From: Amphiscolops sp. MND2022 | Lineage: Eukaryota | DNA: 64,000 bases | Assembly (NCBI GenBank): GCA_964187785.1 | Contig: OZ076409.1 | Location: 3,412,001-3,476,000, forward strand | Reading direction: 5' to 3' | Shown: piece by piece, positions 11,853 through 64,000 of the stretch | Layout of the letters: each line of letters begins with the position of its first letter | Position numbering within the stretch: position 1 is the stretch's first letter | Translations under genes and position numbers: made by a program | The notes under the pieces: generated by a model | The model's database searches: none | What the model was told of the DNA's origin: nothing | What the model saw: only the letters and a program-made list of their open reading frames with translations

Positions 11853-12045
11853 GAGGTGAGTTACTTCATAATCCCGTAAAATTGAAGTATATTGTTGTTT
11901 CTATCTTGTGTGTGGGTTCGAAACCTTCAACGCTAAACTCTCTACTGACTTGAATAATGTCCGTCAAAACAAGACGAGTTAAACAGTAGCAGAAAAAAGA
12001 GCTCAAAACTATGAATCATAGCATTTGACGTCAACGAAAACTAAC

Positions 12046-13285
12046 GGTCACTAGGAACCACATCGATTCCCGTGGATTCAAGTTGCTGTTGCAGACATTC
12101 CAATAACAAAGGGCTAGCCACGGCGCTCCCGCGTACCACTATTTGCCCATGAGCCAACTGACTTCTCGATTTCAAAATTTTCTCGACTAATTTGGCCAGA
12201 AAAATAAGCAACATTGTTTTTCCTGACCCTTTGCTTCCAGCAACCACAAGACGTAAACCTTTCCCGGAAGGTCCTGTGAAGTGTTCATATACTTTCGAGA
12301 TTACTTGCATCTGATCTTTCGTCCACAATATGTACTTTTCTTTTCCCTTATGGTTCTTAACTTTCGACAGCTCGATTATTGCTTCAGTCGAGTTTTTATC
12401 TAGTGAGTAGGGTTGCACTTGATTTTCCAAATGTTCCTTCTTAGTCACCGATTGCAAATATCCACTAGCCAACTGATCATGAATCAATGCTAGCGAGCTT
12501 TCCATGGAACTCAGTGCAATGAGTCTGGAGACCAAAATATCCAATTTGGGCAAACTTGACTCAGGTATATCTCCAAATGTTTGCAATGTGCGGTTCCAAG
12601 TTGCCGGGAAGTCTGCTGAAGTCAACTCATTTTTGTTGAAGACTATCGTTTTGTCGTCAAAGTCCTTTGTTTCTTCGGTTAACTTTTTGAATTTGTCGTC
12701 GACAATGTTGAAATTGCAAACTACAGTGTGAATTGGGATCTCTTTTCCTTCAACTGTGTCGTTGATAGTTGCCAAAATCCGTAAGAACCTTCTATGCTTT
12801 GCAATATCGTCCTTCATTTTCTGCGAAGACGCGCTTTTCCCTCCCACATTTTTGACGTTGAATATGAAGACACCTTTTGTTTGATGTATCAAAATTTGGT
12901 CAATTTCAACTTTTGCCGCTTTTGTATCAAACATTTGACTTCCGTCAAAGTTGGGAAAGACAAGAAATCCAGGTAGTCCAGAGAAATTGCCTTCCATAAA
13001 CAACATGTACAATTGTTTTTCAGCCAAATCACCTTTTTGCGTGGGCTTGAATATCTTTTCTAGAGATTTAGCCATTTGCAGATTATGTAAGAACAGCTTA
13101 GGAATCCTTGCAACAGGAACAGAGGTTACTTTTCCTTTTTCTTTCCAGTCTGGATACTGTTTACAAACCATGTTTAGCATAACCTCGTCATCCAGAATAG
13201 ACGCAGTCTCTCCTCCACTTCCCGGCATCTGAATCCGGATTTTCTGCAACTCTTGTTTGAATTCGTCTCTTTCGTTTGCAGCCAT
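12046..13285 (-). CDS. Exon 1 of NERD-like nuclease / SF1 helicase, paralogue 1 (downstream exon not found in window)
   Basis: Intact 414-aa ORF with GDLAEKQL, EIDQILIH..GVFIFNVKN, Q-motif WTKDQ and Walker A GSKGSGKT. Ends at a phase-1 donor C|GTTAGT (intron starts 12045), at the same position as in paralogue 2. Confidence 0.85.
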
Positions 13286-28900: not shown

Positions 28901-29599
28901 CTGTATATAACAAGAAACGAGCAGAGTTTTAAATATTCTTCATCAGTTACATAGGAATTTTGGAATCTAAATTTATTGAGGAATTGTTGAGTATCAGGTG
29001 AATATGGCAATGAGGGGAGAGGACGGGTTAATATTTGAGATGGTTGTAAATTATGAATTTCAACAATAGGTTTGCAAAGGGAAGAACGACGGAGAGGAGG
29101 TTTTGGTTCAGATAAATCTGGATTTTATGAAAAAAATACGGTGTGTAATAAAGAGTTTACATCATTAACTTTGCAGTGGAGAGGTTTTATATTAGTGGCG
29201 GGACTTCAATGTATCCAATGTATCCGGGGGTAAGAATGGCAGAATGATGAGTGATATTTTGAATAATAACGGAACAACTAGTAGGTTCAGTTTTAATAAT
29301 TTGATATACCTGGAGAAAATTAAAGCTAGAATTAAAAGAATGCGTGAGGTGTAGAAGGAAATATAAATTCATTATCAGAAATTTGAAAAGTTAAAGGAAA
29401 AGTTGGTTGGATTGGAAAATGACTAACTTCAGAGGTGTTTGGTTTAAAATAGATTTTATTTTTAACTTTGATGGTGTATATGTAAGGGAAATATGGATAA
29501 TCTTTTTTCAATGAGCTATAAAAAGGAGAGTGTTCACACGAGATTCATCAGTTGTGTTAAACGTGTTAAATGTAAAAAGAGAGACATATTTTCAAATTT

Positions 29600-32500: not shown

Positions 32501-32871
32501 GCAATGGGAAAATCAATATTATGGGGATGGATGTTTTTTCTGAAGGTATCAGAATGGTTTATGGGAGGAGTGAAAGTAATAGAAAATGGAGGTTCATCAG
32601 GAGTTTCAACAAGAGAATGTGTGTCAATATAGTATAAACAAGAGTCATGACGTTCATGAATGAGGGGGATAGTATAAATATGTTCCGGGTAGGTTTCAAA
32701 AGAAAGAGGAGCGGTAGAATTATAGATGAGATTGTTAAGAAATTTGGAGAGGGTGTGAGATTGTTCACGGGTAATACGTTGGAAGGTGTTTTCGCAAACA
32801 AAAAGAAGAGGAATGAGAAGAGAAGGAGGATCAGACATTAAGAATGTCGATGAGGGAAAAAGTGTAACCAA
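29600..32871 (-). pseudogene. Gag and protease of copy B (multiple frameshifts)
   Basis: N-terminal domain homologous to copy A (APLSFETYPEHIYTIPL..LYYID), capsid fragments, CCHC knuckle, RS-rich tract and DSG protease motif. Confidence 0.85.
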
Positions 32872-42760: not shown

Positions 42761-44982
42761 TGGAAGAATGTCCTTAAAACCTTTCTCAATTATTCACAGT
42801 GAAACGCACCCCAAAATCACCCCTAAGTCTTTTTTTTCCAAAATCTAACACTTCGAAACTTTTTGAAAGTTAACTCGTAAAAACAATGACATAAACCCAA
42901 CTGAACATTGGCAGTGTATTATGATTACTATAATCGATGCAGACCGTTGTCTTTTTTTTAAAACCCGGACGGATGATACGACTATATTGTTTATAAGCCA
43001 ATCAAGTCTCTGTAAAGCAGTCTGGGATAATCTGATCACTTATCTAAGCTGTTTCAACCAATCAGATTTAAATGTATCATACTTACCATTTGATGTATAT
43101 CTACATTTATATGTTTATCAGCTGAATAAAAACGACACAAGATGAATAAACTTTCTTTTATTGAGACCTAAAAACTGCCGCTTTGTTGGTTGTCTCGTTT
43201 AAAGAACTAACCTCAACGCTTTCCCGTAGTTCGTTCTTGTCAGAAAAAATACTTGTTATCTCTTAACTAACGTACAATTACTACAAGTATTTTACTATCG
43301 CCCCGGAATATCAAAACTTTCTTTTGTCTGATAACTAACACTTGGAAGATTGATTGTGATGCTGCTTTTGCAAACTGTAGCAAAACTGTTTCAAACAATA
43401 ATTAAGTTTGCTTAGTATTTTTTTTCAATTTTTTTGATAATATTGATAAGTTTCATATAATTGATTTTCATATAATTATCAGTTTGCATGGAATCTTTGT
43501 ACTTCGCTTGGGTTGAAAAACAAACAGGCGTTGCCTTTTCTAGTCTTTCGTGAAGATAGAGAATTGAAAAACTAAAATCATTCAAGGTCCCATTTATACC
43601 TTTCTCTTGCAAAGATGACAAACGCATGTGGTCAAAAAATAACCCGTAAGCTTTGCGTTGCGCCGAAGTTTGAAACTATTTAGACTGAGTGATCATACTT
43701 CAGTGATTAATTGCCTTGACATTGATGTTAGAAAACATATCAGAAAAAGTCCCGGCACATTTTTCGTCAAGTTCTTGCCAAAGCAAGGAAGAGTAGTTAT
43801 CTAGACAGAACTCACGGCCATTTCTGAGCCCTTTCGAAATAAAATATGAAAAAAACATTTCACAGAAAAAAAGCAAATTGTCTGTACACAAGAAATATAC
43901 ATATCTTTTCATGTTTATTGTTTTTGAATATTCCGTTCGAAGAAACGGCAAAGCTATAATTTCAATCATGCGAAAAGCTAGAACTCTCTTCTTTGACTAA
44001 ACAAATGCAATGGTATATGCAACCGCTCGGAACATTTTTGGCACCATGTGTTGCAATTTTGTCAAATTTCAGAAAAGAACTTTTTTAACTTCGCGCTTAA
44101 AATGTAAGTTGTTCAAATTTCCAATAGAATTGAAATCGAAAATTCGACTGAATGAGAAACATATGGACACTTCAATTGCAACACATGGCGTACGGAAGAT
44201 GCAATTCTGGAAACGATTATTTCCACAACACTGGTTGAATATATAACTTTGTACTATCTCGATATCCAACAGCTAAGATTGAAGAGAATTTTTTGTCAAC
44301 TCAATTTAATCTCACACGCTCAGTCCGTTAGAAATCAGGTTTTATATTAGATCAAAAAAGTTGCGGCGTTGTGAAAAATTGACCCTCCTAAAAAGTCGTC
44401 TTTGAAATGATAACCAAAAATCACAAACAAAAACTGTTATCAAAAAATGTTAACAGCAACGTTTTGTTGGGGTCTTTCAAAAGATGTCGTTCATGCTTTT
44501 CCAGAATGAAGCTCGAAAACAAGAGTTTAATTCCAACTTCAATAAAATGCTTACTTGAAAAATTTCTGCAGAAAACTTCTGCAAATTTCTGCAATTAAAG
44601 ATAGTTCGATCACTAGTAAATACCAATACAGCAAGAAAAACCAGATTTACTTGAAAAGCTGAAGAATTTGCTTACCAAAACCCCGTCATTGAATCTTCTC
44701 AATTCTCCTTTATTTTCACTAATAGTGATGTTCTAAGAGCTCAGCTCTAAGAGTTCAAACTCGCGTTCAGCTGGAACCAATGTTAAGGACGTTTTTGGCA
44801 ATTCCATAGGGCTAGAAAAAATCAATAGTTTTGAGAAAAAAAACAATTTTGGTAGACCTCAAAGTCGCAACTTTTAAAACAAGGTCGATCTTTACTACTT
44901 TCATTGTCATTGACACAGAGGAACTGCCAAGTGTTATCAGTCAAGTAAAGTGCATTGTACACGCTTCCAGTTCGCAAGTTTA

Positions 44983-46219
44983 ATGGCTGCAAACGAAAGC
45001 GACGAATTCAAACAAGAGTTGGAGAAAATCCGGATCCAGATGCCTGGAAGCGGAGGAACGACTGTTTCTATTCTGGATGACGAGGTTATGCTGAACATGG
45101 TCCAAAAACAGTATCCAGATTGGAAAGAGAAAGGAAAAGTAACCTCTGTTCCTGTTGCAAGGATTCCTAAGCTGTTCTTACATAATCTGCAAATGGCTAA
45201 ATCTCTAGAAAAGATATTCAAGCCCACGCAAAAAGGTGATTTGGCTGAAAAACAATTGTACATGTTGTTTATGGCAGGCAATTTCTCTGGACTACCTGGA
45301 TTTCTTGTCTTTCCCAACTTTGACGGAAGTCAAATGTTTGACACCAAAGTAGCAAAAGTTGAAATTGACCAAATTGTGATACATCAAACAAAAGGAGTCT
45401 TCATATTCAACGTCAAAAATGTGGGAGGGAAAAGCGCGTCTTCGCAGAAAATGAAGGACGATATTGCAAAGCATAGAGCGTTTTTACGGATTTTGTCACA
45501 GCTCAACAACACAGTTGAAGGAAAAGATATCCCAATTCACACTGTAGTTTGCAATTTCTACAGTGCGGACAACAAATTCAAAGAGTTAGCTGAAGAAACA
45601 AAGGAATTGGATGACAAAACGATAGTCTTCAACAGTAAAGATTTGACTGCAGCAGAATTTCCGGGAGCATGGATCCGCATATTGGAAACTTTTAGAGATA
45701 TACCTGAGTCAAGTGCGCCCCAATTGGATATTTTAGTCGCCAGACTCGTTGCACTGAGTTCCATGGAAAGTTCGCTAGAATTGATCCACGAACAGTTGGC
45801 TAGTGGATATTTGCAATCAGTGACTAGGAAGGAGCATTTGGAAAATCAAGTAAAATCTTTCTCCGGAGATGAAACATCGACTGATGCGATAGTCGAACTG
45901 TCGAAACGTAAAAACCATAAGGGAAAAGAAAAGTACATATTGTGGACGAAAGATCAGATGCAAGTAATCTCGAAAGTATATGAACACCTAATGGGACCCG
46001 AGAAAGGTTTACGTCTTCTCGTTACTGGATGCAAAGGGTCAGGCAAAACAATGCTGCTAATTTTTCTTGCGAAGTTAGCGCATCACGTTTTGAAATCAAG
46101 AAGTCAATCAGCTCAAGGGAAAATAGTGGTATTTGGAGGAACTATGCCTTCTACATTGTTTTTGGAACATCTGCGACGGCATTTCAAATCTACTGGAATA
46201 ACCGTCCTTTCTACTACTT
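44983..46219 (+). CDS. Exon 1 of NERD-like nuclease / SF1 helicase, paralogue 2
   Basis: ATG at 44983 aligns with the paralogue-1 start (MAANE). Same nuclease motifs, WTKDQ and GCKGSGKT; ends T|GTTAGT (phase 1). Confidence 0.88.
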
Positions 46220-47122
46220 GTTAGTTTTCATTGACGTCAATTTTGCCTAAAACTGGTCGTTACTGTTACTATAAAGCTCGCTGAAAAAGGAAATGTGTAC
46301 GGATTTTTCAAACCAGTTAACATTCTGGCGTTCAAAAGTTCAAAGCACCTCGCAAAGTCAAAATCAACAAAAGAGAATTTCTATATTTTCGTTTGGAATG
46401 GTTAAGATATTTTTATGAACTGTCAGTTTGAAATTACTATCAGGTGAGTTCACGAAAAATGCATCCAGATTGACTACGTTGAAGCAGAAGAATGAGGGCA
46501 CTATATCCGAATACATTACGTTGTGTTCCCAAAATAGCACCGTTTACAAAAATTATATCAGAAAAAGTTTGCTCAGCTTCGGTTTGGAAAAAGGCACTGA
46601 GAGGAAATCGATTCTGCGCCCATTGATTTCCTCGTTAGCGCGCCAACCACTAGAATATTGAGACAAACATGCGGAGAAAATTATCTCAAGGATAAAATTT
46701 ATAGAACAGTGGCCACTGTAGGAGTTTTGAAGTTTTTCAGAAGCACTGACTGAGATGTACGAAGATCGTTTAAATTTCAGTAAAAATGGAAGTCAGCGTT
46801 GTTCATCTGCTGTTAGCTGTAAGCTGTTACAAAGAGAACACTTGGCCAGTTTGGGGCCCAGCGAACTGGTGCGAGAAAACCATCTCATCAAATTTTTCAA
46901 GCACCGTGCCAGCACAAGCTGGGCCAGCTTGTGTTGTACAATGTGGCTCTAGATGGGAATAATCCAAACCAGGTCAACAAAAAACAATTTTATTATCATT
47001 ATGGAAAGAGTTGTCGCTGAGGATCGATCACGGCCGGGGCCGCACCAAAAACTTCATCGAGTGTTCAGTTTCAGATGAGATCCACTTTTTATAGGGAGTC
47101 AATGGTCACATGTTCGCTTTAA

Positions 47123-50100
47123 CGTCATGATATACCTATGGTATAATTTTGAGTCATCATCCTCTACCCATTACCATTATCTTAATTGTAAGTCTAGACT
47201 TGTACTCGCTGTTTGCAATTTTAGTTTTTCGAATCTATTTTCAATACGTATTCTAACTGTAAAGCACTTTCTGATTTGTACACCTACAAAACGATAATTA
47301 TTCTACCATCAAGTTGTCTTCTTTTACTACCTAACACACTGCAGCTCTGTTAGCGTCTCTTTAAAGTACTTATCATCTCCAATCTGAAATAACATAGCTT
47401 ACTCAACCAAAACAAACTAGTATTTCAACTGGTGCAACCAAGACATATCCGTCTGTCCCATCCTTTTTCTAATATCTTCTGTAATGACCATTTTGGTTCG
47501 ATATTCTCCATATCGGTACACAATTCCTTCTGTACTAATCACAAAAAGTGATTCGCAATTTTGTCGGAACATAATTCATATCTTCTGTAATAATCACTGA
47601 ATGTTCATTGCAAGTTCTGCTGGCCTTCTGTACTAATCAAGTTGGCTCGACGCCCTGTCGATACAATATCAGTACCAACCATCTTTGATTTGACAATCTC
47701 GTGGGTACACCATTTTTCTGTACTAACCAAAAACTTTTTTTGGTTTAACGATTCTGTTGGAACAAACTCAATTCAGTTTTTTCTACCAATTCATACCTTG
47801 TTTATATGATTCTGTTGGTATTCTCATATTTTTTGTATATTTTTGGAATCATTGCGATCGCTCGCCTCGTCCCCGACAAATGCATGATTGATTTCATTCC
47901 CCGATAGCTTGAGTGAAATCTCATCTCATGTTTTCAACTAAAAATCTTCCAACTATATATTTTCAAAAGATATACTTTTGCAATGTTTGTTCGTCTCATG
48001 CTTACATCGCTTTTTCATTGACATAATTTCCAACTCATAACCTTCTTTCCCAATCCCAACCTTGACTTCAACTCTATTTTCATCCTACCTCCGTTCTATT
48101 TAAATTGACTCCGCTTTTTATATCCAATCTTCTTTTTTCCAATCTTTCTGCTCCCCATTCCTTTAAACACCAATCCTCTAATTGCTCTCTCGCAACGTCT
48201 AATCATCAACTTTTTCATGCTTTTCACCACTATCTATTTAAACCCCACTTTCCTTTTCCACTGCCAAAAGAAGCTTCTCAAACTCCATCCACATTTACAA
48301 CCACTCCCCACTGAACCTTCTTCTCTATTCACCCTGATATTATTCTAGATCGAATCTGGCTGGTTATTGTTTTGTCCTCATCGCCATTCATAATGACTGA
48401 CCCACCTACTCTAATCTCTCTTCTCTTTTCCTTTGATGTTACCCATCAGCGTCTTTTACGCGACATCGCTCAAGTACTAACTAAACTCCTTAAAAGTCTC
48501 ATCTATGGCTCCACTGCTCCTCTTTCTTTTGAACCTTACCCTGAAGATGTTTACACTACACCTCTGATTCGTGAACATCAAGGCTTATATCTTTATTACA
48601 TCGACACACGTTCTTTGGTAGAAACTCATGTTGAACCCTTTTTAGTCGGCGCCTTTTCCCTTAAGGAGAAAAGCCCGACTCTTACAGTGAGTAGTTTTTT
48701 TTTGTTTTTTTCAGTTGACAACCTCACTCTGAGTGGTCCACTTTTCTTACAATTCTGCAATTCTGCGCAGAAGGCAAACTTTACTCCAAAGGGTCCGCCT
48801 TTCAGTTTTTACTTTTTCAAGGAAACATACACAACCGGACGTGCCCAAAGGGTCCCCCCTTTGGATTTTTTTCGGCACTGTGCGACTTTTTTTCGAAAAT
48901 TTTTTAATGTCCCCAAAGGGTCCCCCCTTTGAGTTTTTTGATATTTTGCAACGGAATGTTTGTTAATAAATCCAGAAGGGTCCCCCCTTTTACATTTTTC
49001 GGCACTATGCGACTTCTTTTGAAAGAAAATTTTTTTTCAAAAATTCCAATTTTTTTCCAAAAAAAGTGTTCTACGCTTTTTGAGCCTTAGATATGGCGCC
49101 GACTTTAGACGTTCTCGTCTTGTTTCCCATTCCTTTCACCTCTCCTCTTAACGGTAATGAGACTTTTCGTTAGAACCGAAACCCCTTCTAGTATTTATAT
49201 CCCAATCGCTCCAGTTTTCATAACCTTCTTCAGAAATTTCTCTGAAAAAAATACTCTTTCACCTCAAAACGCTTTCACTCAGTCTGCTATACAAGCTCTC
49301 CTCCAAAAGGAAACCCGTTTTGATCTTCCCATTATTGAAGAACTCCGCACTACCAAAGACAAAGCTCATCCTTGGCCTACCACTGGTATTCTTCAAATTC
49401 ATCACTTCCAAAACCATCTGTTTCAAAATTTCACCCTAAATACACAAACCAAAGAACAAATTCGAATCTATTCTCTCTTCCTCAGCAAACTGTTTAGACA
49501 TAACTACTAACTCATTTGGAATTCAAAGTTTCAAGACGCTTTTACAAATTTTCCTTCACAATCCAAATCCTATTTCTACCCAACCTTCTGTTTCACACAT
49601 TCACCAAACCCTTCCTCCAATTCCTTTCTTTCCATAAAACTATCAGTACTCAACACCAATCTCACTACTCTCAAACATAACCCTCAGTCCTCCTACCTCA
49701 ACCCTAAGCTCATCTCAAAATCCTTCCTTAAACCTTCCACTTTCCACTTCAAAACCTCTTCCGACATCATATGATCCCTACGCATCACCCCACCCAGATT
49801 TTCATAACTATCCCCCGTCTTCTTTGCAACATCGCCTTAGACCTCTTAACCCTCTTCCACTCTCCTCGTCTACCTTTCCTTTTATTCCACCTTCTCAACC
49901 ACCTCCATCTACTTTTCAAATGACTCCTTCCATTTCTTTTGCCGCTCGCTCCAATCCCAATAAACTTTTTGATAGCATGGATCACTCTTTCCCTTCTGAA
50001 ATGTTTTTAGCTCATCTCCGTGCACGTGTAACATTTTAACTTGAGTCTCAACCCCTCGATATTCAATTATATTTAAACTGGCACCCAAGACTTTTGTCTC

Positions 50101-53100
50101 TTCTTTATTGATCCCTCACAGGAACAGCCTCTAATTGGTATGATGGTCTTTCTCAAGTTTATAAAAACGATTGGTCTTCCTTTTTTTCAAAATTTCAAAC
50201 GAATTCTTTTCTCAAAAACATGCAAACCATGTTCAACTCGAAGCACTTTCCCTTGTTAAAACGATAACGAAATTGTAAGACATTACGCTCTGAAAGTTGA
50301 ACCCCTTGTTAAGCAAGGCTGGTATAATGAATACCCATCAACCATAAATCTCTATTGTAATGATATTTTTACGCGTGGTATCCCAAAAAGCTAAACGATT
50401 TTGCAAACAAACGCTTAATTAAGCGTATTTCTAGTTCACTTGAACCCTCCATTTCTTTCCATTCTCTTGTTAATAAGGTTGACTCTGAAGATATTACCCT
50501 CGAAATCAAATAATTACAAGATCACTCCCTTGAAATTCAGTCTCCCTCTGTCACTTTCAGCAGAATGCTTCTGGTAAAGAAACTCTTTCTGAATCTTCAC
50601 AATTATATGTGGTAGGTACTAATAATAAATCTAAGCCTCAATTATATAAATTTAGTTTTCTGCAGTAAAAATATTCAATCCGTTTCCACCTGCTATTGTA
50701 GACTCACCTGCTTAAAGAATCTAAATCAAAACTACCTACCCCCTCCTCTACCAACATTACCAACCCCAAACAACAAATATAACACTGAAACTCCTCGATA
50801 TCGTAGTCGAAGTAATACTAACCATTATCAAAAATTCGCTCGAGAATCTCGATGAAAATCTCGTTCATACTCTCGTCCCACTTCTCGCTCAAAATAATTT
50901 GATAGACAATCTCCACATAATCATTCTTCATACTTTGATCGTAATCGATCTCGCTACGATTAGCATTAAAGAAATTCTCTTTCACGAACTTATTATGAAT
51001 CTCGCCAAAATTATAACTCTACACCTTATCGTAGACCATAAATCACCATATCGTTCACCATCTAAACCACGTTCTGATCGCTCTGGAAGTCTCGCTCAAA
51101 ACCTATTCTCCACTCCAATCAGATTTACAAACCCACTAGTAATCCATCTCAAAAACCACTTCATCAACTCGCGACCAACACTCCACAGAACATAAAAACC
51201 TAAATTTGAAGTTATTATGTACCACGCAACCTCTTTCCCTCTAGTAACTTCTCCACACTTACAATCAATCTTGCTAACGCTATAACACCTTCTACCTGAT
51301 TTGTTAACTTACACACCTTCAAACCCCCTGAAGTCTCGCTTTACCTTCTAAACTAGAACTTTTATTCCTACAAGACAGCGGCGCTTCCATATGTGTTTTA
51401 GACATCCACCTTCGCAATATTACCTAATCATGTTCTTAAATGTTCCAAATCCACTCCCTCCAATAAAAATTTACAACCCTCACAGTAGCAAATAAAGCTT
51501 AGGTACCCATATTATTCAATGTCGTCCTCACAGTACATACCTCCTTTCATGTAAACACTCACACTCTTATTAACCCGTTTGCAATTGCAAATATCAAATG
51601 TAATATTCTTGGTACCCGTTTCTTTGAAATGTATGTTAAAACTCTCAGCATTGGGCAAACGTCACTCACATTTAAAACACCACATGAATCCCATGTCAGT
51701 ACTCTTCCTTTCACTGCTCATGAAGAAAAAAAATACCCCGTTGTCTCATACATATGCACACTTAAAGTCAAAAACATATTATATTTTAAACTTCACGCGC
51801 CACAAGTTATTCATTTTCCAATTCATCCCACTCTCCCTTTAACGAACAAAACGTCCGAAAACTAAATTAAATTTCCTTCAACCCAACACCCATTTTTCAA
51901 TACCCGCTTTAACGACATTTGTGATTTTCTCTAAGATTATCAATCAAAATTTTAAAACCAAACCCGACAGTTGCTCCGCTATAATCTAAACTTTTACTCA
52001 TCACTCCGTAATCGTTTCGCCAGGGTACATCTGCTGTATTGCAGTTCCTGCCACTAATTTTAAACTACTCCACTATAAAGTTAATGATGTCAATTCTCTC
52101 ATCCACACTATATTTCGTTCATTTTACCCAGATCTCTCAAAACCCAAACATCCTATTCGTCGTACCGCACTCCGAAAAACCAACTTGGAAGGTAATACCA
52201 GACAATCATCTCAAATTTTAAACCGACGTCTTCCTTGTTAACCGTATTCACCAGATACTCAAGAGTTTCTTAACAATTTAAAAGTTCGAAACTCGGATGT
52301 CATTGATGACGTTATGACGAAAATTTAAAACTCTGCTGAATTCCAGTTAAATTTCAACACTGTTATGGTACTCACCGTAATGATAATGGTAAAAAAGCTA
52401 CTTTATTCAAAATTCGTCCCGAACATAATACTAAACTCCAAACTCAAAGACCTACTAAAGTACCCATACATTATAGAGAAAAAGTAAAAAATCTACTCGA
52501 TGATTTAGAGACTCGCAACATTATTTGAAAAACTGGCTCTACTCCTTCAGATAATTCCAATTATGGTACTACTTTTTACAACCAACTCATCATTATTCTC
52601 AAAAGAGAAACAATTAAAGTCGTCCTAGACGCAACTCACCTCAACTCCAATGATGACAAATCCTTTGAGTCTTGTCCTATTGAACTTTTAGCTCCTCAAT
52701 TTGCAAAAGCTAACAAAAAATTGGAGTCTGCAATTGATATCATGGACGCCTATGCACCCGCCTCCTTAGATAAAGTAACTATTACTCTCACTTGAAATTA
52801 CTCCTCCTTCTGACACTCTGCAGCAGAAAGCTTCTGTTGGAAGAACTCCTTCAGAATCTCCACAATTATATGCAGTAGATACTAATAATAAATCTAAACC
52901 TCAGTTTTATTAAATTAGCTTTCTGTCGTAAAAATAATCATTCTGTTTCCACCTGCTATTGTAGACTCATTGTGCTTAAAGAATCTGAACCTATATCGAA
53001 ACCTATGATTTCATCCGAGGTTTCTACGGTCCTCGAGGACTCCCAATTTTTTTCACCAGACGGAGGTATTCCTCTTTTTGAAAACTCCTACACCAATTGT

Positions 53101-56100
53101 TGTTTAATTTGACGGTATCTTCTTCTTGATATCTTCTTCCCATATTTGAACTCCGATATTAGACTTAATTAAACAGTTACACTAAATATTTAGCTCTAAT
53201 AATTTTGGAATTGCTCCTGAAAATTCATTTTATATTCTCCTCACTGTCAATGTTCTCGCACATGAAATTGGCAACAACACCAATAAACCCAACCTTTCTA
53301 TATTTTCGTTGACGGCTTTTTATAGGTTTTAGGTGCAATCTATTTCACCCCAACCAAGATAATAAAATGCAAGTTAAATTTTCTAACTCACGTATTTTAA
53401 CAACACAAGAACAACCCCTTTTAACTTTAGATCACGAATTCTGAGCTATAGCGTTTGCACTTTCTCAATACGAGATTATTTATATTGGCTCCAATTTCCC
53501 GATCAGTATTTTCATTGATCATAACCCTATTTTATTTCTAATCATCCTTGAAGGAAACCCCAAACCAAGACAATATAAAAACCAAATGCTATTAACAAAA
53601 TTCTCAAATATTCAAAATAATCTTACTGCAGGTACTATATTAACTGTTGCTCTTATGCTCAGTCAAAATACTTCAAGCAAGTATTACAAGCACAATGCTT
53701 CGATTACATCTCAAAACATTTCCACAACTTAGAAGAAATATGGAAAATTCCCTAAACCTAACCTATGACACATTATCTCATACTAATGCTATAACGCAAA
53801 CTCTTATTAACTCTACTTCTACCAGTTCATTGCAATTTTTTGACTGATATGTTCAATCTAAAGTGTTTGAAAACACTTTCCTTCCACCCGACACAATTTT
53901 AACAATAGCGATCTTTCTCAAAGCTCAAAAAGATGATCCTGTTCACTCCCCAGTTTATACATGGTTAAAACTAAAACAAAAACCTTAAATCCTAACCCCA
54001 GTTATTGACGCTGACTCCGTTCTCAACACGTACTATGAACCATTTCAACAATCATACTTAGATCCAAATCCACACCCCGTTCGATACTATACACCTAACA
54101 CTCGATAATTTGAAGAAATCTGCACCAAAACTCAACTATCTATTAACTAAACTCGCATTTGTTTACCATTTAAACTCTTCTATGCTGCTTTTGACAAAAA
54201 CCCATCTACGAGGCCACTTCGGTGAAAACTATCCATTTAAACTGTTAGGCAGTTTAATTAAATTCCACATTTACCTTTTTGAATCTCTGTTTTCATTTAT
54301 GATTGTGTTGAATATCAAACGAGCAAACACGTCCCTATCAAACCTAACATAATTTATCCTCCTCTTCCATTTTTTTAAAAATGCCACAAATTTTAATGAT
54401 AGAATCTCCATGGACAGAAACGGATCTAATTCCCCTTCTTCACAAAATGAGTCCTTAGTTTTTGTAATCTATGACGCCTTCAATCAATTTTAGTTACCAA
54501 CCCTGTACCTCATATTTCTTCTAGATATGCTACTCAAGCACTGCTTAACAATTCTATCGGTAACTTTGGCCCTCCTCAGAATCTCGTAACTGATCAAGGT
54601 ACAGAATATTAGATTCAAAATATGACACATCTTTGGTCTCTCTCTTTAAAAACAATCATTCTCCACAAACTCCATTTCCTCCTTCGACCAATGGTTGAGT
54701 GGAAGTACGCAACCAAAACTTTGGAACTCATTTTTGCTTCTTTTTACAAACTCCTCCTCCAAATTGGTCATTTCCCACGCCATTGTGTGCTTACGCTCGT
54801 AATAGTACTCCTCTTCCCCAACTTCAACTCTCTCCATATCAAATTAGTTTTCATACACACCCCAGTTTCCCATTAATTTTTTCTTTTATTTTAGTAAGTA
54901 AATCTGCCTAAGACTGTATTGTCACAAACTCTGATTCAGTTCCAATCATTACACACTACAGTGAACAAGATCTTGATCCTTTTTTCCGCTCACTCATATT
55001 TAAACCTAGTTTTTTATATCTTTTATCAGCTGAACATAGTTCATATTCATATAACTAACAAAAATAAATTTACAATTTTCTATATTTGTAACAACTCATT
55101 TAAAACAACTCCCTTTTAATACCTTTTTTATTCACACTAGTGTATATCTGACATTTTCTCTCCAGCTTTTCCGTGTTGGTCCATATAAAATTCTTCAACC
55201 TCTCTCAGATGTTACATAGGAACTCATGGCTCAAGATGGCTCTACATTTCATACTCACCGAAACAACACTTTACCATATTACCCCAAAGAACCTGATGTT
55301 TTCCCATATCTCCGTCAAATCATTCTACCCCCTCACTCCTTATAATCCTGATACTGATTCGTACAAAGATAATCTCACTCACTCTTTCCATTTTATTAAA
55401 GAAACACTATTCGAATCTTTTGACCCTCATACTTCTATTAAAACAATTGCACAACCTCAACGCACTTTACCTCCATCTCCGAATTATCAAGTTCTCCCTG
55501 ATTTTATAACCTCCTATTGGTTCACTTGATGAAACTTTTGACTCCATAGATTCCGATTTTGAAATGCTCTGAAATCCTTTTTATCGTACTAGTTCTTCCA
55601 GCACTCCATCTTTGTCTCAATTTTATCCACGTGTTGTTGACTCTCCTAACCATACTTTTGAATCTACTCCTGACTCTCAAACTTTACCCACGCTAATTAG
55701 AGCTCGTCACCTTATAATTTACGCTCACTGCCACCAAAGGATTGACATACCCCCAATACTAACATTAACCTTTCTACTTAATTTTAAATTCAACCACTAA
55801 TTGTAATAGTTTTACAAACGCTACTTGACTTGTCTCCTGTCTAGACTTCTCATTATTTCTGACGCATGACATACCGAATCTGATTATTAGACATCCCATT
55901 TCTTACAGTTCGATCATTTTGTGAAAAACTTTCCGACTGTACAGTCGACTTCTAACGGTTGCTATCGACTAATAACCAAGACTAACAACAACTTCAACTT
56001 TCTTTAGTATATCGATTTTTAGTTGAAGAAAAGTATTTTATTCTATCTACTTTTAAAACCACTCACTGCTATAATATAAAAATTACGTTTCCTTCCTGGA

Positions 56101-56290
56101 TCCCACTGTTATTTTTGCATCAGGCTCCACAGACTCATCTGTTTCTTCCTCAGTCTCCACCGGAACTTACACCACTTCTCAAACCTCTTTGTTAATCTTA
56201 AGCCGTCTTCCTCTAAACCCTAAACCTAATACTCGCTCTTTAGACAAACCCCCTAAAAATACTCCTTTAGACTCTATGTTTAACTTTTAT
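47123..56290 (+). mobile_element. Ty3/Gypsy copy D (LTR-PBS-gag-pro-RT-RH-IN), heavily decayed, no 3' LTR seen
   Basis: LTR ~47123-47427, PBS TGGTGCAACCAAG 47430-47442, gag homology 48390-51200, DSGAS ~51375, RT 52370-53290, RNase H 53300-53680, integrase (RISMD, TDQGTE, NGxVEVRN) 54400-54870. The 3' boundary is approximate. Confidence 0.88.
48639..49124 (+). mobile_element. Helentron-associated (HINE/DINE-1-like) non-autonomous element inserted in gag of copy D
   Basis: Sub-TIR AGTCGGCGCC (48644-48653) / GGCGCCGACT (49095-49104), a 5' hairpin, a 3' hairpin AGACG-TTCT-CGTCT, internal AAGGGTCCCCCCTTT repeats and T-run flanks. Gag homology (LVETHVEP|FPIPFTSPL) resumes after removal. Confidence 0.82.
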
Positions 56291-59200
56291 TATGTAGGTT
56301 TAAGAGAAAATAGGTAATCTTTTTCTTTTTGAGCGGTAAAAGAGATTCATGGGGTGTTCTAAATGTGAGTGACACTTAATCAAGTTTGAGAGTTTTAACA
56401 TGTTTTTCAAAGAAAGGGGTACCAAGAGTATTGTTTTTGGTATTTGCTATTGCGACAGGATAACAAAAGTTGGAGTACTTCCATGAATGGAGGTAAGTTT
56501 TGTGAGGATGGCTTTGAATAGTATGTGTACTTCAGCTTCTTTTGCTACTGAGAGTTTTACCATCGGTATTAGAAGGATTAGATTTTGAACATTCAAGAAA
56601 ATGGTCAGCTAATATTGTGACTGTGGGTAAGTTTAGAACACAAACAGAAACGCCGCTCTCTAGAAAAATTAAAATTTCTTGTTTAGAAGGTAAAGAAGAG
56701 TCTTCAGGTGCTTTGAGATGTATGGATTGACAAACCATGCAGAAGGAGGATTGACAAACCATATAGCGTTAGCATGATTGTTTGCGAAAGTGGAAGATGT
56801 TACATGAAGAGCGGTGGTTGGATGATACATATCAATTTCAAATTTAGGTTCTGCGGAGGCTTTTTTTGAGTTGACGAAATAGGTTGTTGATAGTTGGTAT
56901 TATTCGGTTTGTAAGTATAATTGTAGTGGAGATTAGAATTTGAGTGTGATCTACTTCGATAACGATCAGTAAGGGTGAACGATATGGTGATTGATACCGT
57001 CAAAAAGATGAGTTGTTATAACTAGAGGAGCGTTCACGATAACGAAGATATTTTTTAGGGACTACGAGAAGATGTGTAGATGTAATATGGACGGAAAAAA
57101 GTTTTCGTGAAGGAAATGTTTATAACGATGATGATAGCGAGTTCGATTACGATCATAGTATGAAGACTAATAAGAGATTTGTCGAATATTTTGAACGAGA
57201 GTTTGAGCGAGAGTGGGGAACGAAATTTGTATCGAGATGCTTATAAAATTTAATGATATTGGTTACTATTATCACTTCGACTACGATTACGAGAAGTTTG
57301 AATTTTGGTTTTGCTGTCTGATGTTCTGCAATATTGATAGAAAGAGGGAGTAGGTGATTTTGATTGGAGTTTAGATTTTTTAGGCATTTTGAATGTAAAA
57401 TAACAGGTGGAAACCGAATGATTCTTTTAATGGCAGAACGGAAATAATTCTTTATACTGGAGTTTGGATTTATTTTTAGGATCCACTGAATATAGTTGTG
57501 GACATTCGGAAGTCTTTTCTTTAAAAGAAAAATTCTGTTGAAAAGTGTCGGAGCGAGTTCGAATTTAAAAGGAATGTTCTTGCGTTTCAACTTTATTCAA
57601 GAGTACTATCTTTGGAAGCAACCAAATTGACAAGAGAATGGAAAGGAATGGAGGGTTAATGTAAACTAGAAAAACGATAGTTGGCAAAATGTTTTTTTTT
57701 GGGAGACCACCCGTAAAACCTTATTTCATTTGAGGTGTATGGTTGATAGGTATTCCTGTACCAGCCTTGTTCAACAAGATTTTCAACTTTCTTTCAGAAT
57801 GTCGCACATTTTTGTAATCATTTTTAACAAAGGGAAGTGCTTCTAGTTGCGCAAGATATGCATGTTTTTGAGAAAAGAATTGTTTTTGAAAATTTTTTTG
57901 AGAAGGAATACCAATCATACCAATTGGAGGCAGTTCCTGTGATGGAAAAAAGGAGATATTCGTCTGGAGTGCCATTTTGAATATGATTGAACATCAAAGG
58001 GTTGAGATCCAAGTTGAAAGGTTACACGTGCACTGAGGTGAGCTAAAAACGTTTCTGGAAGGTATGTGTGATCCAAGCCATCAAGCAGTTCAATGGGATC
58101 AGAGAGAGAGAGAGAGAGCAGCAAAAGAAACAGAAGGAGTCAATTGAAAAACAGATGGAGGAGGTTGTGAAGAACGTGGATTGAAAGGTAGAAGCAGATG
58201 ATTGGGGAGGGCTAGAAGGCAGATAAGGGGGTTGAAAAGAAGATTAATCATAGTTTTAAAAATCTAGGTGAAGTGATGCGTGAGGATCATAGGATGTAGG
58301 AGGAGGATTTGAAGTATTTTGAGATGTGGCAAAAGAGGATTGAGGATTTTGATTACAAGACGAAAGAGTTGGAGGAAAGTATGATTGAAAAGAGTGGGAT
58401 TGGGGTTGAGTGGTGATGGAATTATAGAAATAAACATAAAATGGAAGAAGGATTTGATGGAGGTGAGAGAATGTTGAGTAGTAATGAAATTTATTTTGGA
58501 AGAAGTAATACAGTTGTGTAGTGATTAAGAAGTTGAAGGTTGAGTATTGGTAGGTTCTGGTGAAAAAGAGGAATAAGGGGATCTAAATTTGGAGGAAACC
58601 AATATGGTGAGTAGTTAATAAAACATTGGGAGATGAGGGAATAGTTTGTAAAGAAAGATCAGATGTGGTGTTAATTGATGGAATCTGAAAGGTATGCTTT
58701 GCTGGTCTAACAGAAAGATGAAGTTCAAGATTTTCATCAATGCTGTGGTTGTCAAACGGGAGGTGGATGGAGTGAGCAAAAGGAAAATCCAGGAGGTTAT
58801 AAAACTGAGGATGATGATTTTCAGAAGTGGCAATAAAAGGTAAAAATTCAGTGGCAGAACATTGCAAAGGAAAGTCAGTACAGGAGTCTTGGAGTTTTGA
58901 ATCACAAACATCTAGGTAGTTATGTCGAAGAAGTTTTCAAAGAAAGAGAGAGTGGATTCGAATTTCTTCTTTACTTTGTGTATTCGAAATGAGATTTTGA
59001 AAGAGTTGGGTTTGAAAGTGGTGAGTTTGAAGAAAATCAGTGATTACCCGATGATGAGGAATCCTTTCAATACTGGGAAAGGCAAAAATAGTTTTCTGTA
59101 GCAGAGCTTGTATAGCGAATGGAGTAAAAGCATGTTGAAGTAAAAGATTTCCTATAAAGAGGTTTTTGAGGAAGGTGGTGAAAACTTGAGCTATGGGAAT

Positions 59201-60827
59201 ATAAATCTTAGAAAGATATAAGTTTTTACGAAAGGTTTCGTTACGATAAAGAGCCGAGGTTAAAGGAAGTTGAAAAGAGGGTTCACCGAGAGTTTCGAGA
59301 GTTTCTCTTGAAGAACGTGTGTCGATATAACATTGATATCAGTCTTGATGACCACGAATAAGAGGTATAGTGTGAATATCTTCAGGGTATGTTTCAAATG
59401 GAAGAGGAATAGTTGAGTTATGGATTTGATTTTTATGCAGTTTGGTAATTCTTTAAGCGGTATCGCGTGAAAAAGGATAATGAGTATCATCAAAAAAGGA
59501 GGGCGGAGTAAAGGAGCAGGTGGGTCAGTCATTATGAGTGGTGATGAGAAAAATACTTTTACCAGATTTGGTCTAAGATAGTATCAGGGTGAATAGAAGG
59601 TTCGGTGTTCGGTTGGCAGTGGTATTGATATCGATGGAATTCAAGAAATATATATATTGACTTTGGAAGTAGAAGAGAAGATTAAAATGAACTGTTGAGA
59701 GGAGTACACAAAGTAAGTTAGCAAGAGTTGTGAGAGAGCAATGAAAGGGATTGAGTTTGAAAGAAAGAGGAGCATGAAAGTATGAGATGAGAATGAAAGA
59801 AACTTTTGAGAGTCAAGATGAAATAGGACTGAGGTGTGTTAAAATGAGGTTTAGTGTAGTTTAACATAGAGAGGGGAAAAGATAACATGAGAAAAGGGGT
59901 GAATTTATTAAAAATAGGAGACACCAATTTTTTCTTCGAGAAGCATGAGAAAAACAAGCATTGCGAAAATACATGTGACAAAAACAAAGATTGTAGCAAG
60001 TTTTTCAAATAAGAACATTGATTGTGGTATCAAAGATATTGTCGGGGAAAAAATCAATCATGAATTTGTTTACGAGGAGAAGAACGATCGCGAAAGGTCC
60101 AAACATGGACAACAAAATAAAAAAAATACAATCGGAATCATTTTAGGAAGGCATGAAGATGTACAAAAGCGACGCAATTAGTTGTATCAACAGAAATGTT
60201 GAACCACATAATGTTTTGGCTATTACAGAAAAATGGTGTACCGAGAATGTCGAATCAAAGATGGTTTGTACTAGAATTGTACCGAAAGGACGTCGAACCA
60301 ACTTGCAGAAAAGTTGAATTTGTACCGACAAAAATGCCGAATCACTTTTTGTGTGTAGTAGAGAGAGTTGGTGTACCGACAAAGGTGTCGAATCACTTCG
60401 ATATGATTAGTATAGAAGAAAGAAATTGTGTACCGATAGGGAGAATATCAAACCAAAATGGTTAGTACATAAGAGAGTAGAAAAAGGAAAGCAAAAAAAG
60501 TACTTTTCTTGGTCGCACCATTTAAAGTACTTTGGTATTGGTTGGATTTGGATTGTTTAGTTGGACGATTGTTTCGGAGATGATCAGTACTTTAAAAGAC
60601 TCTAACAGAGCTGCAGTGTTCGGCCTAAAGATTGACAACTTGATGTTGGAAGATTTATTATCGTTGTGAATAGTTCAAATCAAGAACTGTTTTACAGATA
60701 GAATAAGCAATGAATACAAAATAGATACATTAAAATTCAAAGCAGCGAGTACAATTCTAGACATTCAGAAAAAAGGAAAAAGAGGGGATGATTATTATTT
60801 ATTAAATCATAGGTATATCAATTTACA
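56290..60827 (-). mobile_element. Ty3/Gypsy copy E (LTR-PBS-gag-pro), 3'-truncated, inverted relative to copy D
   Basis: LTR ~60827-60523, PBS TGGTGCGACCAAG 60520-60508, gag (DGLDHTYLPETFLAHLSARVTFQLG), protease (FLESGVSVCVL). Ends ~56300. Confidence 0.88.
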
Positions 60828-61277
60828 CTTGGGTGGAAAATCGAGAAAAGAAAGACACAATATACTCGGGAACACTAAAAAGTTCCATACAAGTTTCTAC
60901 AATAACTAAAACTAAATAAATTTTCAGAGCACCTGACATAAGTAAAGCCTACTCGGCATTCAAGGGAACAGGAACCCCAATGGACTAAACTGTTATCTCA
61001 ACGAAGTCTACAGCCGTGTGAACGCTAAATTGCCGTGTGAACTAATGTAACTGTAACTAATTTCAGATGTCCAACGTGCATACATAGAGATGCGTACTTG
61101 AAACTTGCGCTAGAATACGTTATTTTAATTAAAACTAGATTGTTTTACTAAATCCTTATTCATCAATATAGTCTTAAATAACAACATCGAAACCGACGAG
61201 TTGAGATATTTGGATTGTCATTGGATTTTTTTAAAAAATTTTGAACAGTCTTCCATATAAAACTTTTACTGTTTCAG

Positions 61278-63607
61278 CTTCTCTGAATACCACAATGTTC
61301 AGTTGTGAGACGGAATACCGTTCATTGGCTAATGAATTAGAGCAGCAAACAAAAAAGGCAACTCTTATACTATGTGACGAGTTTGATTGGCTTAGCGATG
61401 GTCGTCACCCACATCTGGATTGCCTACAAGCAGATCAGAATTGTATTTTTTTCACCTCTCATACGTATTGGAAGGAAATACCCCAGTTTGACAAGTTGCA
61501 TTTAAGTGCTTCCCTCCGATCGACTGGTGAGATATCTCGCTTCGCAGCAAGGTGGAGAGAATGCAGTCGCGTCCGCGAATTCGATTGGCGTCTTGGTCAC
61601 AATTTTGAAGGTGAAAGAGTTGAAGTTCAGATCATCCAAAAACTTGAAATGGAACCAAACAGTCACCGGCAATATTCTCATTTCACTTCTAAATGTGCAA
61701 CTTTAATCAAACAAACGGCAGATAATTTAGCAGATGACGGAGTTCTTCCTGTAATTTGCTTTATGAGTGACGCGCTTCAAGATATGCTGTTTTCTGCTTT
61801 CATAATAATGTTTCCAAACCAACTATGCATCCGCAGAACTGAAAACATGAACCATCTATCAGGGAACCATGGACCTCTTATTCGTTTATTCAGACCTCAC
61901 GAGGTTGCAGGCATGGAGTTTGGTGCAGTTTTTATTTTATTCAGCTACATGCATGTGGCAGACTTTGACTTTGCTCACAACGAGTTTTTTTTCACTGCCA
62001 TTACAAGAGCTTCCACTAAATTGACAATTATAGCGAGTGATTTGCAACTTTCCGATTGCCGGATGTTGAAGAATGACCCGAAGGATGATTTGCAAGAGTG
62101 CTGCCTGACAGACGAGTGGCAGAACTCAACGTTGCAGCAACATATAGCAGCAGCTGGTGCGATCAATGAAAATCTTTCTGTTCTTTTGGTTGGGTATGAA
62201 CCCTCCCTGGCTTCGTTCCAGAAACGAAAATATGAAGCAAGTGGTTTGTCTATTGAAGGGGTTACCGAGTACGTCGGTGTGAAAGGAAGCTTCCTTCACG
62301 TAGAAGATGTGGCTGACACCAAAAGTCTTGAAACATTTCAAAATCTTGGTATAAAAGTTATTTATGTAGCAACTGTTCGTGTACAAGGCAGAATGCAAGA
62401 CAGATTTTACCAAATCACCCACCGGTTGATTGAAGCTTTCTTCAAAAAACAGGAGAACCCTTTTAGGATTTTTTTTCTAGGAGACAAGAACGGAAACATG
62501 GATGAGTTTCTGTCATTTTTAAAATTTGTTCTATCAGAGTCTGGAAAAGGCTCAACCTTCACCAGTATCGATTGCGATACCGAGAGAAATTATTCAGATA
62601 TACTCTATCAAATTCGCAGTGATATTAGCTGGAGAAAGTGGAAACCAAAAGCGGATGCTCTATTTAGAGTAGGTGAAATGGATTTGTCATTAATTGCTTA
62701 CTCCTTTGCTTTCGAAAGCCTGAAAAAAGAGCACCTTTTGGCAAAGCAAAGCAGTAGTTTATCTCAGGTTGTTGAAACGATGAAAGAAGCGGCCAAAGTG
62801 TTGGCAGACGTTTCTTTAGTTTATTTGAAGTTACCACCAATAGAGTCGAGCATACATCCAATTGAAAAATTGGTTCCATTTTGCCTGGATTTTAATGATC
62901 TTCAACCATTCCAATGTCACCTAATGAAAGCTTTGCTTTTCGCAATGTATGCTACAAAATGGAACGTTTGCTGGTTCGAAAGCTATGATAGAATTGGAGC
63001 CGCCGTGCAGAAATTGAGCTTCACAGCTCACATTCAGATGATCGAAGAAGACAAGAAAGCCCCAACTGATACATTGAACAAACGCATGAAAAATTTGATT
63101 AAAGAGGATAAATTGCTGAAGGAACCAGTACGTTTTTGGGACGCTTCTATTTTGAAAATTGGGACATTCTTCTATGCTGATATTGAACCCAAGTTGAAAG
63201 AATTCACCCAAGCTGTAAGTAATTATAAAGAAGGATTGGATTCAGCAACTATTGAAGAGCTTATCTCTTTGAGGAAGAAAGTATCAGATGTGCTTGAAGA
63301 GCTTCAAAAATGTAGTGGTGACGTCAGAAAGAAGATTTTGGATGAGCGTGCTGATCGCGAGGATGCAATTCATAAGCTGAGACTCGAAGCTGATATTGTT
63401 TTAAAATCTGAAATTCTTTTTGGTACATACGCTGTAAGATGGAATCCGACCAATGTCAAAAACTACCAAACTTTATTGGCATCATTGGAGAAGTTTGAAA
63501 CAGTGGTTAACCAACTCAGCGTTGAAACAAAACGTTTATCTCAGTACCTCGAAGTTATCGCGAAGAAGGAAATGTCAAGCAAAAAAAGAAACTTCGTCGG
63601 CATATGA
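61278..63607 (+). CDS. Exon 2 of paralogue 2: SF1 helicase motifs II-VI plus TPR-like/helical C-terminus
   Basis: Uninterrupted ~776-codon frame with Walker B LILCDEF, motif IV LSASLRSTGEI, motif V HEVAGMEFGAV, motif VI FFTAITRASTKL and TPR-like WKPKADALFRVGEMDLSLIAYSFA. It lacks its own Walker A and begins at a strong acceptor. Confidence 0.88.
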
Positions 63608-64000
63608 ATCGTAAGGTATATAAACTTGAGAAACGTCAATTGATGCACCAGCGCCTTCATTAAAAATTTCATCAACGATCAGAGCAACTATTAGAAACTC
63701 ATATCAAATTAGTTCCTAGATGAGAAAAACTTAATTTCTGATATGTACAGTTATAATAATTTTTCCTGGAGATATTGATTCGTCACGTTTTTTACAAGAC
63801 AAAATGCTTCAACGAACCTTCCATGTTGAAAGACAATTGTTGAAGCTGACAGTAAGCTTTACATCAATATTGCCTTGATGAACCGGGGAAAGGAATCATT
63901 TGAACGCTTAAAATTATAACTCATCTTCGTGAAATTTTGGTTATCACATTCCTAGTTTTGTTTGGAAATTTAGAGGAGGATTCTACATATTAAATTGCAA

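Follow-up and report, generated by a model that had tools for sequence, protein, structure and literature searches.

A candidate two-exon gene for a NERD-like, superfamily 1 helicase protein with a TPR-like tail in Amphiscolops sp.

Do two long open reading frames (ORFs) that lie 15 kb apart encode one protein or two, and what might that protein do? The question is raised by a 64-kb stretch of the Amphiscolops sp. MND2022 genome (contig OZ076409.1, positions 3,412,001 to 3,476,000), referred to here as the window. Seventeen ORFs of at least 150 amino acids (aa) are found in the window and four exceed 400 aa: the two in question (44950..46224, + strand, 424 aa, and 61241..63607, + strand, 788 aa), a paralogous copy of the first and a retroelement gag-like ORF. 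A previous inspection of the DNA (the sequence-only reading) had proposed that the pair are exons of a hidden gene for a nuclease–helicase with a tetratricopeptide repeat (TPR)-like tail that might serve innate immunity. Our comparisons indicate that the ORFs are very probably two coding exons of a single gene encoding a protein of ~1188 residues. The parts of the gene are as follows, P0001 being the protein of the exon-1 ORF (residue 1 at 44950) and P0002 that of exon 2 from 61280.

44983..46219, + strand: exon 1, coding part, ATG at 44983, 412 codons and one base; conserved N-terminal stretch, NERD-like domain, helical linker and first part of helicase domain 1A including Walker A
45217..45564, + strand: NERD-like (PD-(D/E)xK-derived) domain, P0001 residues ~90-205
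46027..46050, + strand: Walker A (motif I), GCKGSGKT, P0001 residues 360-367
46220..61277, + strand: phase-1 intron, 15,058 bases, donor GTTAGT, acceptor TTTCAG
61278..63607, + strand: exon 2, two bases, 775 codons and TGA, from ORF, translation and structure model; remaining helicase core, alpha/beta domain and TPR-like helical tail
61280..62059, + strand: helicase core from Walker B to motif VI, P0002 residues 1-260
62177..62539, + strand: alpha/beta domain, P0002 residues ~300-420, from the secondary structure of the model
62612..63595, + strand: helical tail, P0002 residues 445-772

Alignments of homologues to exon 1 begin at query residue 12-20. At its other end the donor context is ...ACT ACT T|GTTAGT, the last exon base (46219) being the first base of codon 424 of the first ORF, while the acceptor context is CTGTTTCAG|CT and the first base of exon 2 (61278) is the second base of codon 13 of the second ORF. 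With both sites in phase 1, the join creates the codon TCT (Ser), and the reading frame from the ATG at 44983 runs to 412 + 1 + 775 = 1188 codons, exactly as the sequence-only reading had calculated. That reading had also placed the two Walker motifs on separate ORFs close to the join, and they are indeed found there: Walker A ends 56 residues upstream of the donor, and Walker B lies 29-35 residues downstream of the acceptor.

Usual animal donors are GTAAGT or GTGAGT. In the family to which this gene belongs, a phase-1 N|GT stands at the homologous codon in 11 of the 12 exon-1 loci examined (the exception is L016), and GTTAGT itself is used by 6 of the 11 paralogues with a recognisable site, the rest having GTGAG, GTAAG, GTAAT or GTCAG. 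Of seven acceptors inspected, four (L001, L003, L005 and L021) are clear phase-1 (T)nCAG sites, two (L004 and L006) are plausible and L008 is neither. Exon-1-like and exon-2-like parts occur on the same strand, in the right order and 2.4-31 kb apart, at 11 loci including this one. Further evidence comes from two continuous homologues, P0029 (1203 aa) and P0034 (1172 aa, RefSeq XP_075261236.1), that span the exon junction, with exon 1 aligned to ~residue 423 and exon 2 from ~427-432. Judged by the conserved splice sites of the paralogues, the exon join is beyond chance, and comparison thus bears out the proposed two-exon model. An extra small exon within the intron was considered and rejected, the linker being shorter, not longer, in the continuous homologues. 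Within three bases after the TGA stop there is a GTAAGG (63605-63620), so an alternative 3' exon may lie downstream.

The two halves are nevertheless listed separately in ORF-based public predictions: exon 1 (413 aa, P0155) and exon 2 (770 aa, P0123) form two proteins in a public ORF-style collection, so the gene is hidden from annotation of this type, as had been suspected. Together with an ATG at the sixth codon of exon 2, this could be taken to mean that the ORFs are never spliced and represent separate genes, or an untranscribed relic still open by chance. We regard this as most improbable. A single RecA-like domain has its Walker A on one ORF and its Walker B on the other, and neither half alone would form an ATPase; full-length homologues are continuous across the junction and the splice sites are conserved. 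In addition, both ORFs retain every family-invariant residue checked, and the ratio of non-synonymous to synonymous substitution rates (dN/dS) is below 1.

What, then, does the joined frame encode? Profile comparisons using hhalign point to a helicase. Ten full-length animal proteins match one set of bacterial NERD-helicases at 98.1% with an expectation value (E) of 1.3e-13 over 288 columns, from Walker A to motif VI, and a second bacterial set at 97.5% (E 5.9e-12). Permissive extension gives one colinear path that begins at the NERD motif, reaches the C-terminus and covers 527 columns, the extended flanks of which are not independently significant. When the exons are treated separately, the exon-1 profile falls on columns 251-325 of a bacterial helicase profile (87%, E 4e-6) and the exon-2 profile on columns 369-444 of the same profile (56%, E 1e-4); on this alignment the exons of the window are two consecutive pieces of one helicase. 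The motifs are in keeping with this. Walker A and Walker B are invariant or nearly so in the family and align to the bacterial motifs (AGSGKT in the case of Walker A), whilst P0002 carries LILCDEF at 29-35 (DE at 33-34), LRST (R80), GMEFG at 211-215 and TRA at 242-244 (R243). Motifs IV-VI correspond to the invariant columns R493, G613/E615 and R645/A646 in P0034 numbering, which align to bacterial N.RS, KG.E and TRA. Two features differ: the Q that follows DE in motif II is absent (DE-F/Y in the family, DEGQDF or DEGHDF in bacteria), and motif III reads C-I-x-F-(S/T)-S-D, compared to FLGDRDQL in RecD, without a GD..Q-like form.

Structure models were obtained for the homologue P0034 and for exon 2 of the window. 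The P0034 model is confident over residues 1-660 (predicted local distance difference test score, pLDDT, mostly 75-94) but not in the tail, and the exon-2 model (m91e435da5773) has a mean pLDDT of 78 and a predicted template modelling score of 0.71. Two RecA-like domains with a superfamily 1 (SF1) fold are found. Foldseek searches with P0034 place human SLFN11 and SLFN14 at the top (E 2e-13 to 4e-13); next come IGHMBP2, UvrD, RecD/RecD2, UPF1, Dna2 and HelD. In sequence-based searches, Pfam UvrD_C_2 scores 19.1 bits on the window copy, below its cut-off of 27.4; SLFN-g3 (PF09848) scores 14.6 bits on P0034 (E 0.02), the cut-off being 24; a PDB sequence search with three family profiles found nothing significant, the best helicase being 3dmn (E 0.54); and single-sequence RecD against the family profile reaches 10% probability (E 0.003). 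Identity as a STAND NTPase or AAA+ protein was rejected: the Pfam matches of that kind cover the Walker A stretch alone and lie below their cut-offs, and fold and profile are those of SF1. With consecutive profile columns, motifs I, II and IV-VI and the fold matches all in agreement, the proposed SF1 core split by an intron is well supported.

The N-terminal domain had been described as a NERD nuclease, and only the first half of that description stands. Pfam NERD (PF08378) matches P0001 residues 133-201 with 24.8 bits, above the gathering cut-off of 22.1, and paralogues in the same genome score 29.5-32 bits; 25 of the 47 family members scanned are matched (best E 1.8e-7). The motifs of P0001 are GDLAE (E100), VEID (D140) and FNVKN (N154, K156). 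NERD-only slices match the bacterial sets by hhalign with E values of 5e-5 to 1.4e-3, and hhalign sets D140, N154 and K156 against bacterial D, E and K, with the GE helix, the D and the K in register. In the P0034 model the region comprises a helix at 74-91, strands at 100-103, 125-129 and 133-140, a helix at 151-170 and a strand at 186-192 (pLDDT mostly >85), the alpha-beta-beta-beta-alpha-beta order expected of a PD-(D/E)xK core, as seen in a homologue and in a full-length model only.

The catalytic signature E...D...ExK, however, is incomplete in the protein encoded in the window, which has E100, D140 and N154-V-K156. Among 153 family proteins, all 73 that bear the motif have N (58) or S (15) in place of the ExK glutamate, which is invariant in the 13 bacterial reference proteins; these, together with general background, are the basis on which ExK is taken as the usual NERD signature. 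A metagenome family fragment, P0106, still reads CEVK. From these alignments the animal family as a whole lacks a complete canonical metal-binding triad and, with N or S for the catalytic glutamate, 'nuclease' is to be read as 'nuclease-derived'.

Downstream of the helicase motifs, the fold-match ranges in the exon-2 model extend to ~residue 426 and thus take in the alpha/beta domain, which could be either a part of domain 2A or an accessory domain. The tail begins with a TPR-like domain at ~445-580, with the family motif W..WK.KA..LF..G.....AY, and continues as long helices. No Pfam TPR family matches P0002 at E <= 1, and the exon-2 profile finds the FKBP-type TPR chain 3rkv weakly (E 0.27); in its central part the tail shares homology with those of distant members (86%, E 5e-6). 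The tail is probably TPR-like, as the sequence-only reading proposed. Overall, we hold with high confidence the following architecture, from N- to C-terminus: NERD-like domain, helical linker, UvrD/Schlafen-like SF1 core, alpha/beta domain, TPR-like tail.

Is this gene a solitary relic or one of many? A six-frame search of its own assembly (1.07 Gb, 1929 contigs) returned 55 hits for exon 1 and 35 for exon 2, merged by reading the tables into ~30 loci. These lie partly in tandem clusters, and several copies are interrupted, frameshifted or broken. At G000:C10:20531780-20546521 the exon-1-like and exon-2-like parts are ~11.7 kb apart on opposite strands, which could reflect an inversion or two truncated genes. 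Against its closest paralogues the gene in the window has dN/dS values of 0.42 and 0.30 for exon 1 and 0.57 for the tail, and other paralogue pairs give 0.09-0.52, values that point to purifying selection on both exons, weaker on the tail, in agreement with the selection proposed earlier. Synonymous divergence (dS) between copies ranges from 0.24 to >2, so the duplicates are old. By these measures the gene is an intact member of the ~30-locus family.

One paralogue (L021, G000:C1:3404300-3412000) begins within the window.

12041..13285, - strand: exon 1 of the neighbouring paralogue, divergent, Pfam NERD 23.8 bits, donor C|GTTAGT

Its exon 2 lies beyond the window start and has the acceptor CTGTTTCAG|CT, identical to that of the main gene. 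The two genes are arranged head-to-head with starts ~31.7 kb apart, and their proteins are 81% identical over exon 1 and 57% over the tail (dS 0.27 versus 0.52), an inequality that hints at gene conversion in exon 1. Exon 2 of the neighbour is split after '...ECCL' by a 2.78-kb insert, which holds a piece resembling retroelement debris at 48805-49037; the neighbour may be a pseudogene or may have gained an intron.

Relatives outside this genome are few. A phmmer search with exon 1 of 1.84 billion representatives found only 103, some of them uninterrupted proteins of 1017-1598 aa. Those with a named source are RefSeq models labelled 'uncharacterized protein' in the acoels Convolutriloba macropyga and Symsagittifera roscoffensis and, in the scyphozoan jellyfish Sanderia malayensis, two EukProt entries. 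No match was found by tblastn of exon 1 against 72,556 plasmids, no relative in prokaryote genome contigs by pattern and tblastn scans, and none in 2.9 million viral contigs by pattern scan. A word-indexed protein search returned six matches each time and reached few family members. Atlas searches with P0034, used as leads only, gave mollusc clusters, bacterial NERD-helicases and a Schlafen helicase, all at 0.89-0.91, a hint that molluscs may have further NERD-bearing clusters; an Atlas search with the tail alone gave no usable match. Literature searches found no paper describing animal NERD-helicases; bacterial NERD-helicases are already known, whilst the animal family is present in databases only as uncharacterised predictions.

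Tails vary within the family, being either TPR-helical or composed of a beta-helix and a MYND finger. The latter, a sister architecture seen in other genomes (P0036, P0042, P0128, P0129 and P0092), combines a right-handed beta-helix (Pfam Beta_helix/NosD) with a C-terminal MYND zinc finger and has no helical tail. Of the two jellyfish proteins of this type, P0129 (1580 aa) has a NERD-like start, and P0092 (1353 aa) begins just before the ATPase, without one.

The sequence between the exons had been called decayed, and decayed it is: no ORF in the 15,058-base intron is longer than 186 aa, and retroelement copies with in-frame stops were found there by tblastn with the ORFs of a copy located elsewhere in the window, at 24.7-33 kb.

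48360..53678, + strand: decayed Ty3/gypsy-like retroelement in the intron, with gag-like, reverse transcriptase (RT) and RNase H pieces containing in-frame stops (tblastn)
57160..59470, - strand: second decayed copy of the same retroelement family in the intron, inverted (tblastn, blastn)
24775-32871, 5594-8604 and 3943-4348, - strand: open pieces of Ty3/gypsy-like retroelement copies outside the gene
28072-28644, - strand: RT
27057-28016, - strand: RNase H
6757-8604, - strand: gag-like ORF of 615 aa
3943-4348, - strand: RT fragment

The 15-kb intron is swollen by this debris, and the two decayed copies make up much of it. By blastn, nucleotide similarity of the two intron copies spans 47128-53663 and 56268-60820, and they are 66-71% identical to the 24.7-33 kb copy, which has RT and RNase H ORFs. 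GC skew is opposite in the two halves of the intron because the copies are inverted relative to one another. Strong GC-skew blocks (+0.4 to +0.56) are also seen at 4-10 kb and 24-34 kb, a result of the retroelement copies located there. Segments 47128-51690 and 56344-60820 form an imperfect inverted repeat with arms of ~4.5 kb and ~68-70% identity; that the arms might pair in the pre-mRNA and draw donor and acceptor together is pure speculation. Scans of the 64-kb window for tRNA genes and Rfam families gave no matches.

With so many copies, some interrupted or frameshifted, in loci rich in retroelements, it might be asked whether a mobile or viral element carries the family or recently gave rise to it, in which case the copies would mark that element's spread. 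Bacterial NERD-helicases do often travel with mobile defence islands. Nevertheless, we consider such an origin improbable. The place and phase of the intron are conserved whilst its length (2.4 to 31 kb) and content vary, the duplicates are old, and the retroelement pieces in the intron occur in both orientations and are unrelated to the exons. Moreover, Pfam scans identified no transposase, Rep, integrase or capsid domain in any family member scanned, and the viral contigs, as noted, yielded no relative by pattern scan.

How might the protein act? We envisage an ATP-driven translocase or sensor on nucleic acid, in which the NERD-like domain would grip or recognise nucleic acid more probably than cut it and the TPR tail would recruit or sense a protein partner. 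The family might then counter viruses or mobile elements in the manner of its bacterial look-alikes (Nhi, AbiO and the NERD+UvrD candidates) and of the structurally similar Schlafens. Several features favour defence: matches to the defence-system models of PADLOC, a multi-copy, clustered and partly broken family, varied tails and a Schlafen-like helicase fold. Among 47 members, PADLOC gave nine matches to NERD+UvrD (best 2.8e-7), six to DRT-associated NERD-helicase, five to AbiO (best 2.1e-7) and two to Nhi (best 1e-5); P0135 matches Nhi at 1.2e-5 over residues 284-411 and P0040 matches AbiO at 1.7e-6. The NERD+UvrD model (C3a187, 559 positions) is matched colinearly, residues 120-392 on positions 46-231 and 592-631 on 506-542. 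Because the case is built on weak similarity to defence-system models, the pattern of the gene family and analogy, a defence role is put forward tentatively, as a possibility that falls some way short of probable.

A number of observations weigh against it. The matches to defence models are weak and come from other members of the family: P0001 itself has two PADLOC matches at E ~3e-3, P0002 has none, and neither matches Nhi or AbiO. Lacking the catalytic glutamate, the animal protein cannot simply be assigned the nuclease-helicase mechanism of Nhi, and in the absence of prokaryote or viral relatives by pattern and tblastn the bacterial tie is detectable only at profile level. Without the Q residues of motifs II and III, any unwinding activity is putative. 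The full-length model is that of a homologue, P0034, which is 35% (P0001) and 18% (P0002) identical to the parts encoded in the window, and in rigid fold comparison it is the repair helicase UvrD that matches best. The TPR matches resemble Hsp70/Hsp90 cochaperones, and such domains usually bind chaperone tails. Finally, multi-copy status and dN/dS values of 0.3-0.6 would also fit non-immune families.

The same gene and architecture could instead serve a housekeeping function in repair, replication-fork processing or RNA surveillance or decay. The best structural matches besides the Schlafens (UvrD, HelD, FBH1, PcrA/Rep and UPF1) would suit this, as would the matched 3-TPR domains, which are typical chaperone or adaptor binders, the purifying selection on all parts of the gene and the altered nuclease motif, which removes the obvious feature for destroying foreign DNA. 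Housekeeping helicases, however, are normally single-copy and widely conserved, whereas here there are ~30 loci, several of them broken, and the 103 representatives found include named members only from acoels and one jellyfish. Orthology to a known housekeeping helicase would have undone the immune interpretation, but no solved helicase was matched by sequence, and the tails vary. We judge a housekeeping role unlikely, though a good deal less so than a mobile origin. The combination of gene, architecture and a nucleic-acid or defence role thus remains the best explanation of the whole, one to which we give slightly better than even credence.

A bolder proposal is that the animal family belongs to the bacterial NERD-SF1 helicase defence lineage (Nhi/AbiO-like) as a branch that has expanded and evolves fast, with a helicase whose closest structural kin are the Schlafen helicases, a TPR or beta-helix/MYND sensor tail and a rewired, possibly non-cutting NERD domain, and is in effect a new innate-immune sensor/effector family directed at viruses or retroelements. 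We consider this possible but doubtful. Were it true, the family might link bacterial NERD-helicases to vertebrate Schlafens. Bacterial anti-phage counterparts have come to light for many animal immune modules, among them cGAS-STING, gasdermins, TIR, viperins and STAND/Avs-like ATPases. In bacteria, NERD-helicases recur as a defence module, and our literature searches found no animal counterpart of them described; the present locus offers a concrete, apparently intact and testable animal gene that is colinear with the bacterial proteins and has a Schlafen-like helicase fold, and the change in its catalytic motif predicts a change in mechanism. As ORF-style annotation cuts such genes in half, the family is easily missed in genome surveys of immune genes.

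How does the protein compare with systems already known? From UvrD, PcrA and Rep, the SF1A helicases, it differs in its accessory domains and at both termini, and there is no match at sequence level. STAND-type immune ATPases with TPR sensors (Avs5/AVAST5, SAMD9) likewise place a P-loop ATPase before a TPR-like solenoid, and Foldseek with the exon-2 model gives weak whole-chain matches to 9nc9_G (E 6.1e-4, probability 0.69) and to SAMD9 (9zjs, E ~1.2e-3, probability 0.41-0.66). The animal ATPase, however, is an SF1 helicase with two RecA-like domains, and TM-scores are 0.10-0.15; the likeness to STAND proteins is best read as an analogy of design, not as membership.

The helicase fold match to group III Schlafens (SLFN11 and SLFN14) is strong, but the N-terminus of the animal family is of NERD type rather than Schlafen core/AlbA_2, and a TPR tail is added. 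Pfam detects no Schlafen core in P0001 or six full-length homologues, none is present among the families listed for the 47 members (the full table for P0034 and the 25 commonest of 58 families), and solved SLFN chains give no sequence match to the animal family. On account of the NERD N-terminus, the added tail and the lack of an SLFN sequence match, the protein is not a member of the Schlafen family.

The closest comparison is with the bacterial NERD-SF1 helicases. NERD is listed for Mokosh type I and Nhi-like systems (PMC10952713); Nhi of Staphylococcus epidermidis is reported to be activated by phage single-stranded DNA-binding protein, with degradation of phage DNA as its proposed action (PMC10732053), and a preprint predicts a NERD-helicase as partner of type I-G Tiamat (bioRxiv 10.64898/2026.09.30.754977). 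Our reference comprised 13 bacterial ORFs of 527-650 aa, chosen by size, so that the counts that follow do not represent an unbiased rate. All 13 carry UvrD-type, AAA_19 or SLFN-g3 helicase domains, SLFN-g3 (PF09848) being matched by three; in 12 both NERD and a helicase family are found at E <= 1e-4, and in the thirteenth, which was identified by a NERD match, only helicase families reach that limit. The fusion of bacterial NERD to UvrD- or SLFN-g3 (DUF2075)-type helicases, stated in the sequence-only reading, is thereby supported. Compared with these proteins, the animal gene has a conserved intron and its product has ~75 extra N-terminal and ~500 extra C-terminal residues, the latter making up the alpha/beta domain and TPR-like tail; the ExK glutamate is replaced by N or S, and neither motif II nor motif III has its Q. 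The likeness is of a kind that only profiles detect, yet within it the domain order is the same, the proteins are colinear from NERD to motif VI, and Walker A, Walker B, the motif IV arginine and the TRA of motif VI are common to both.

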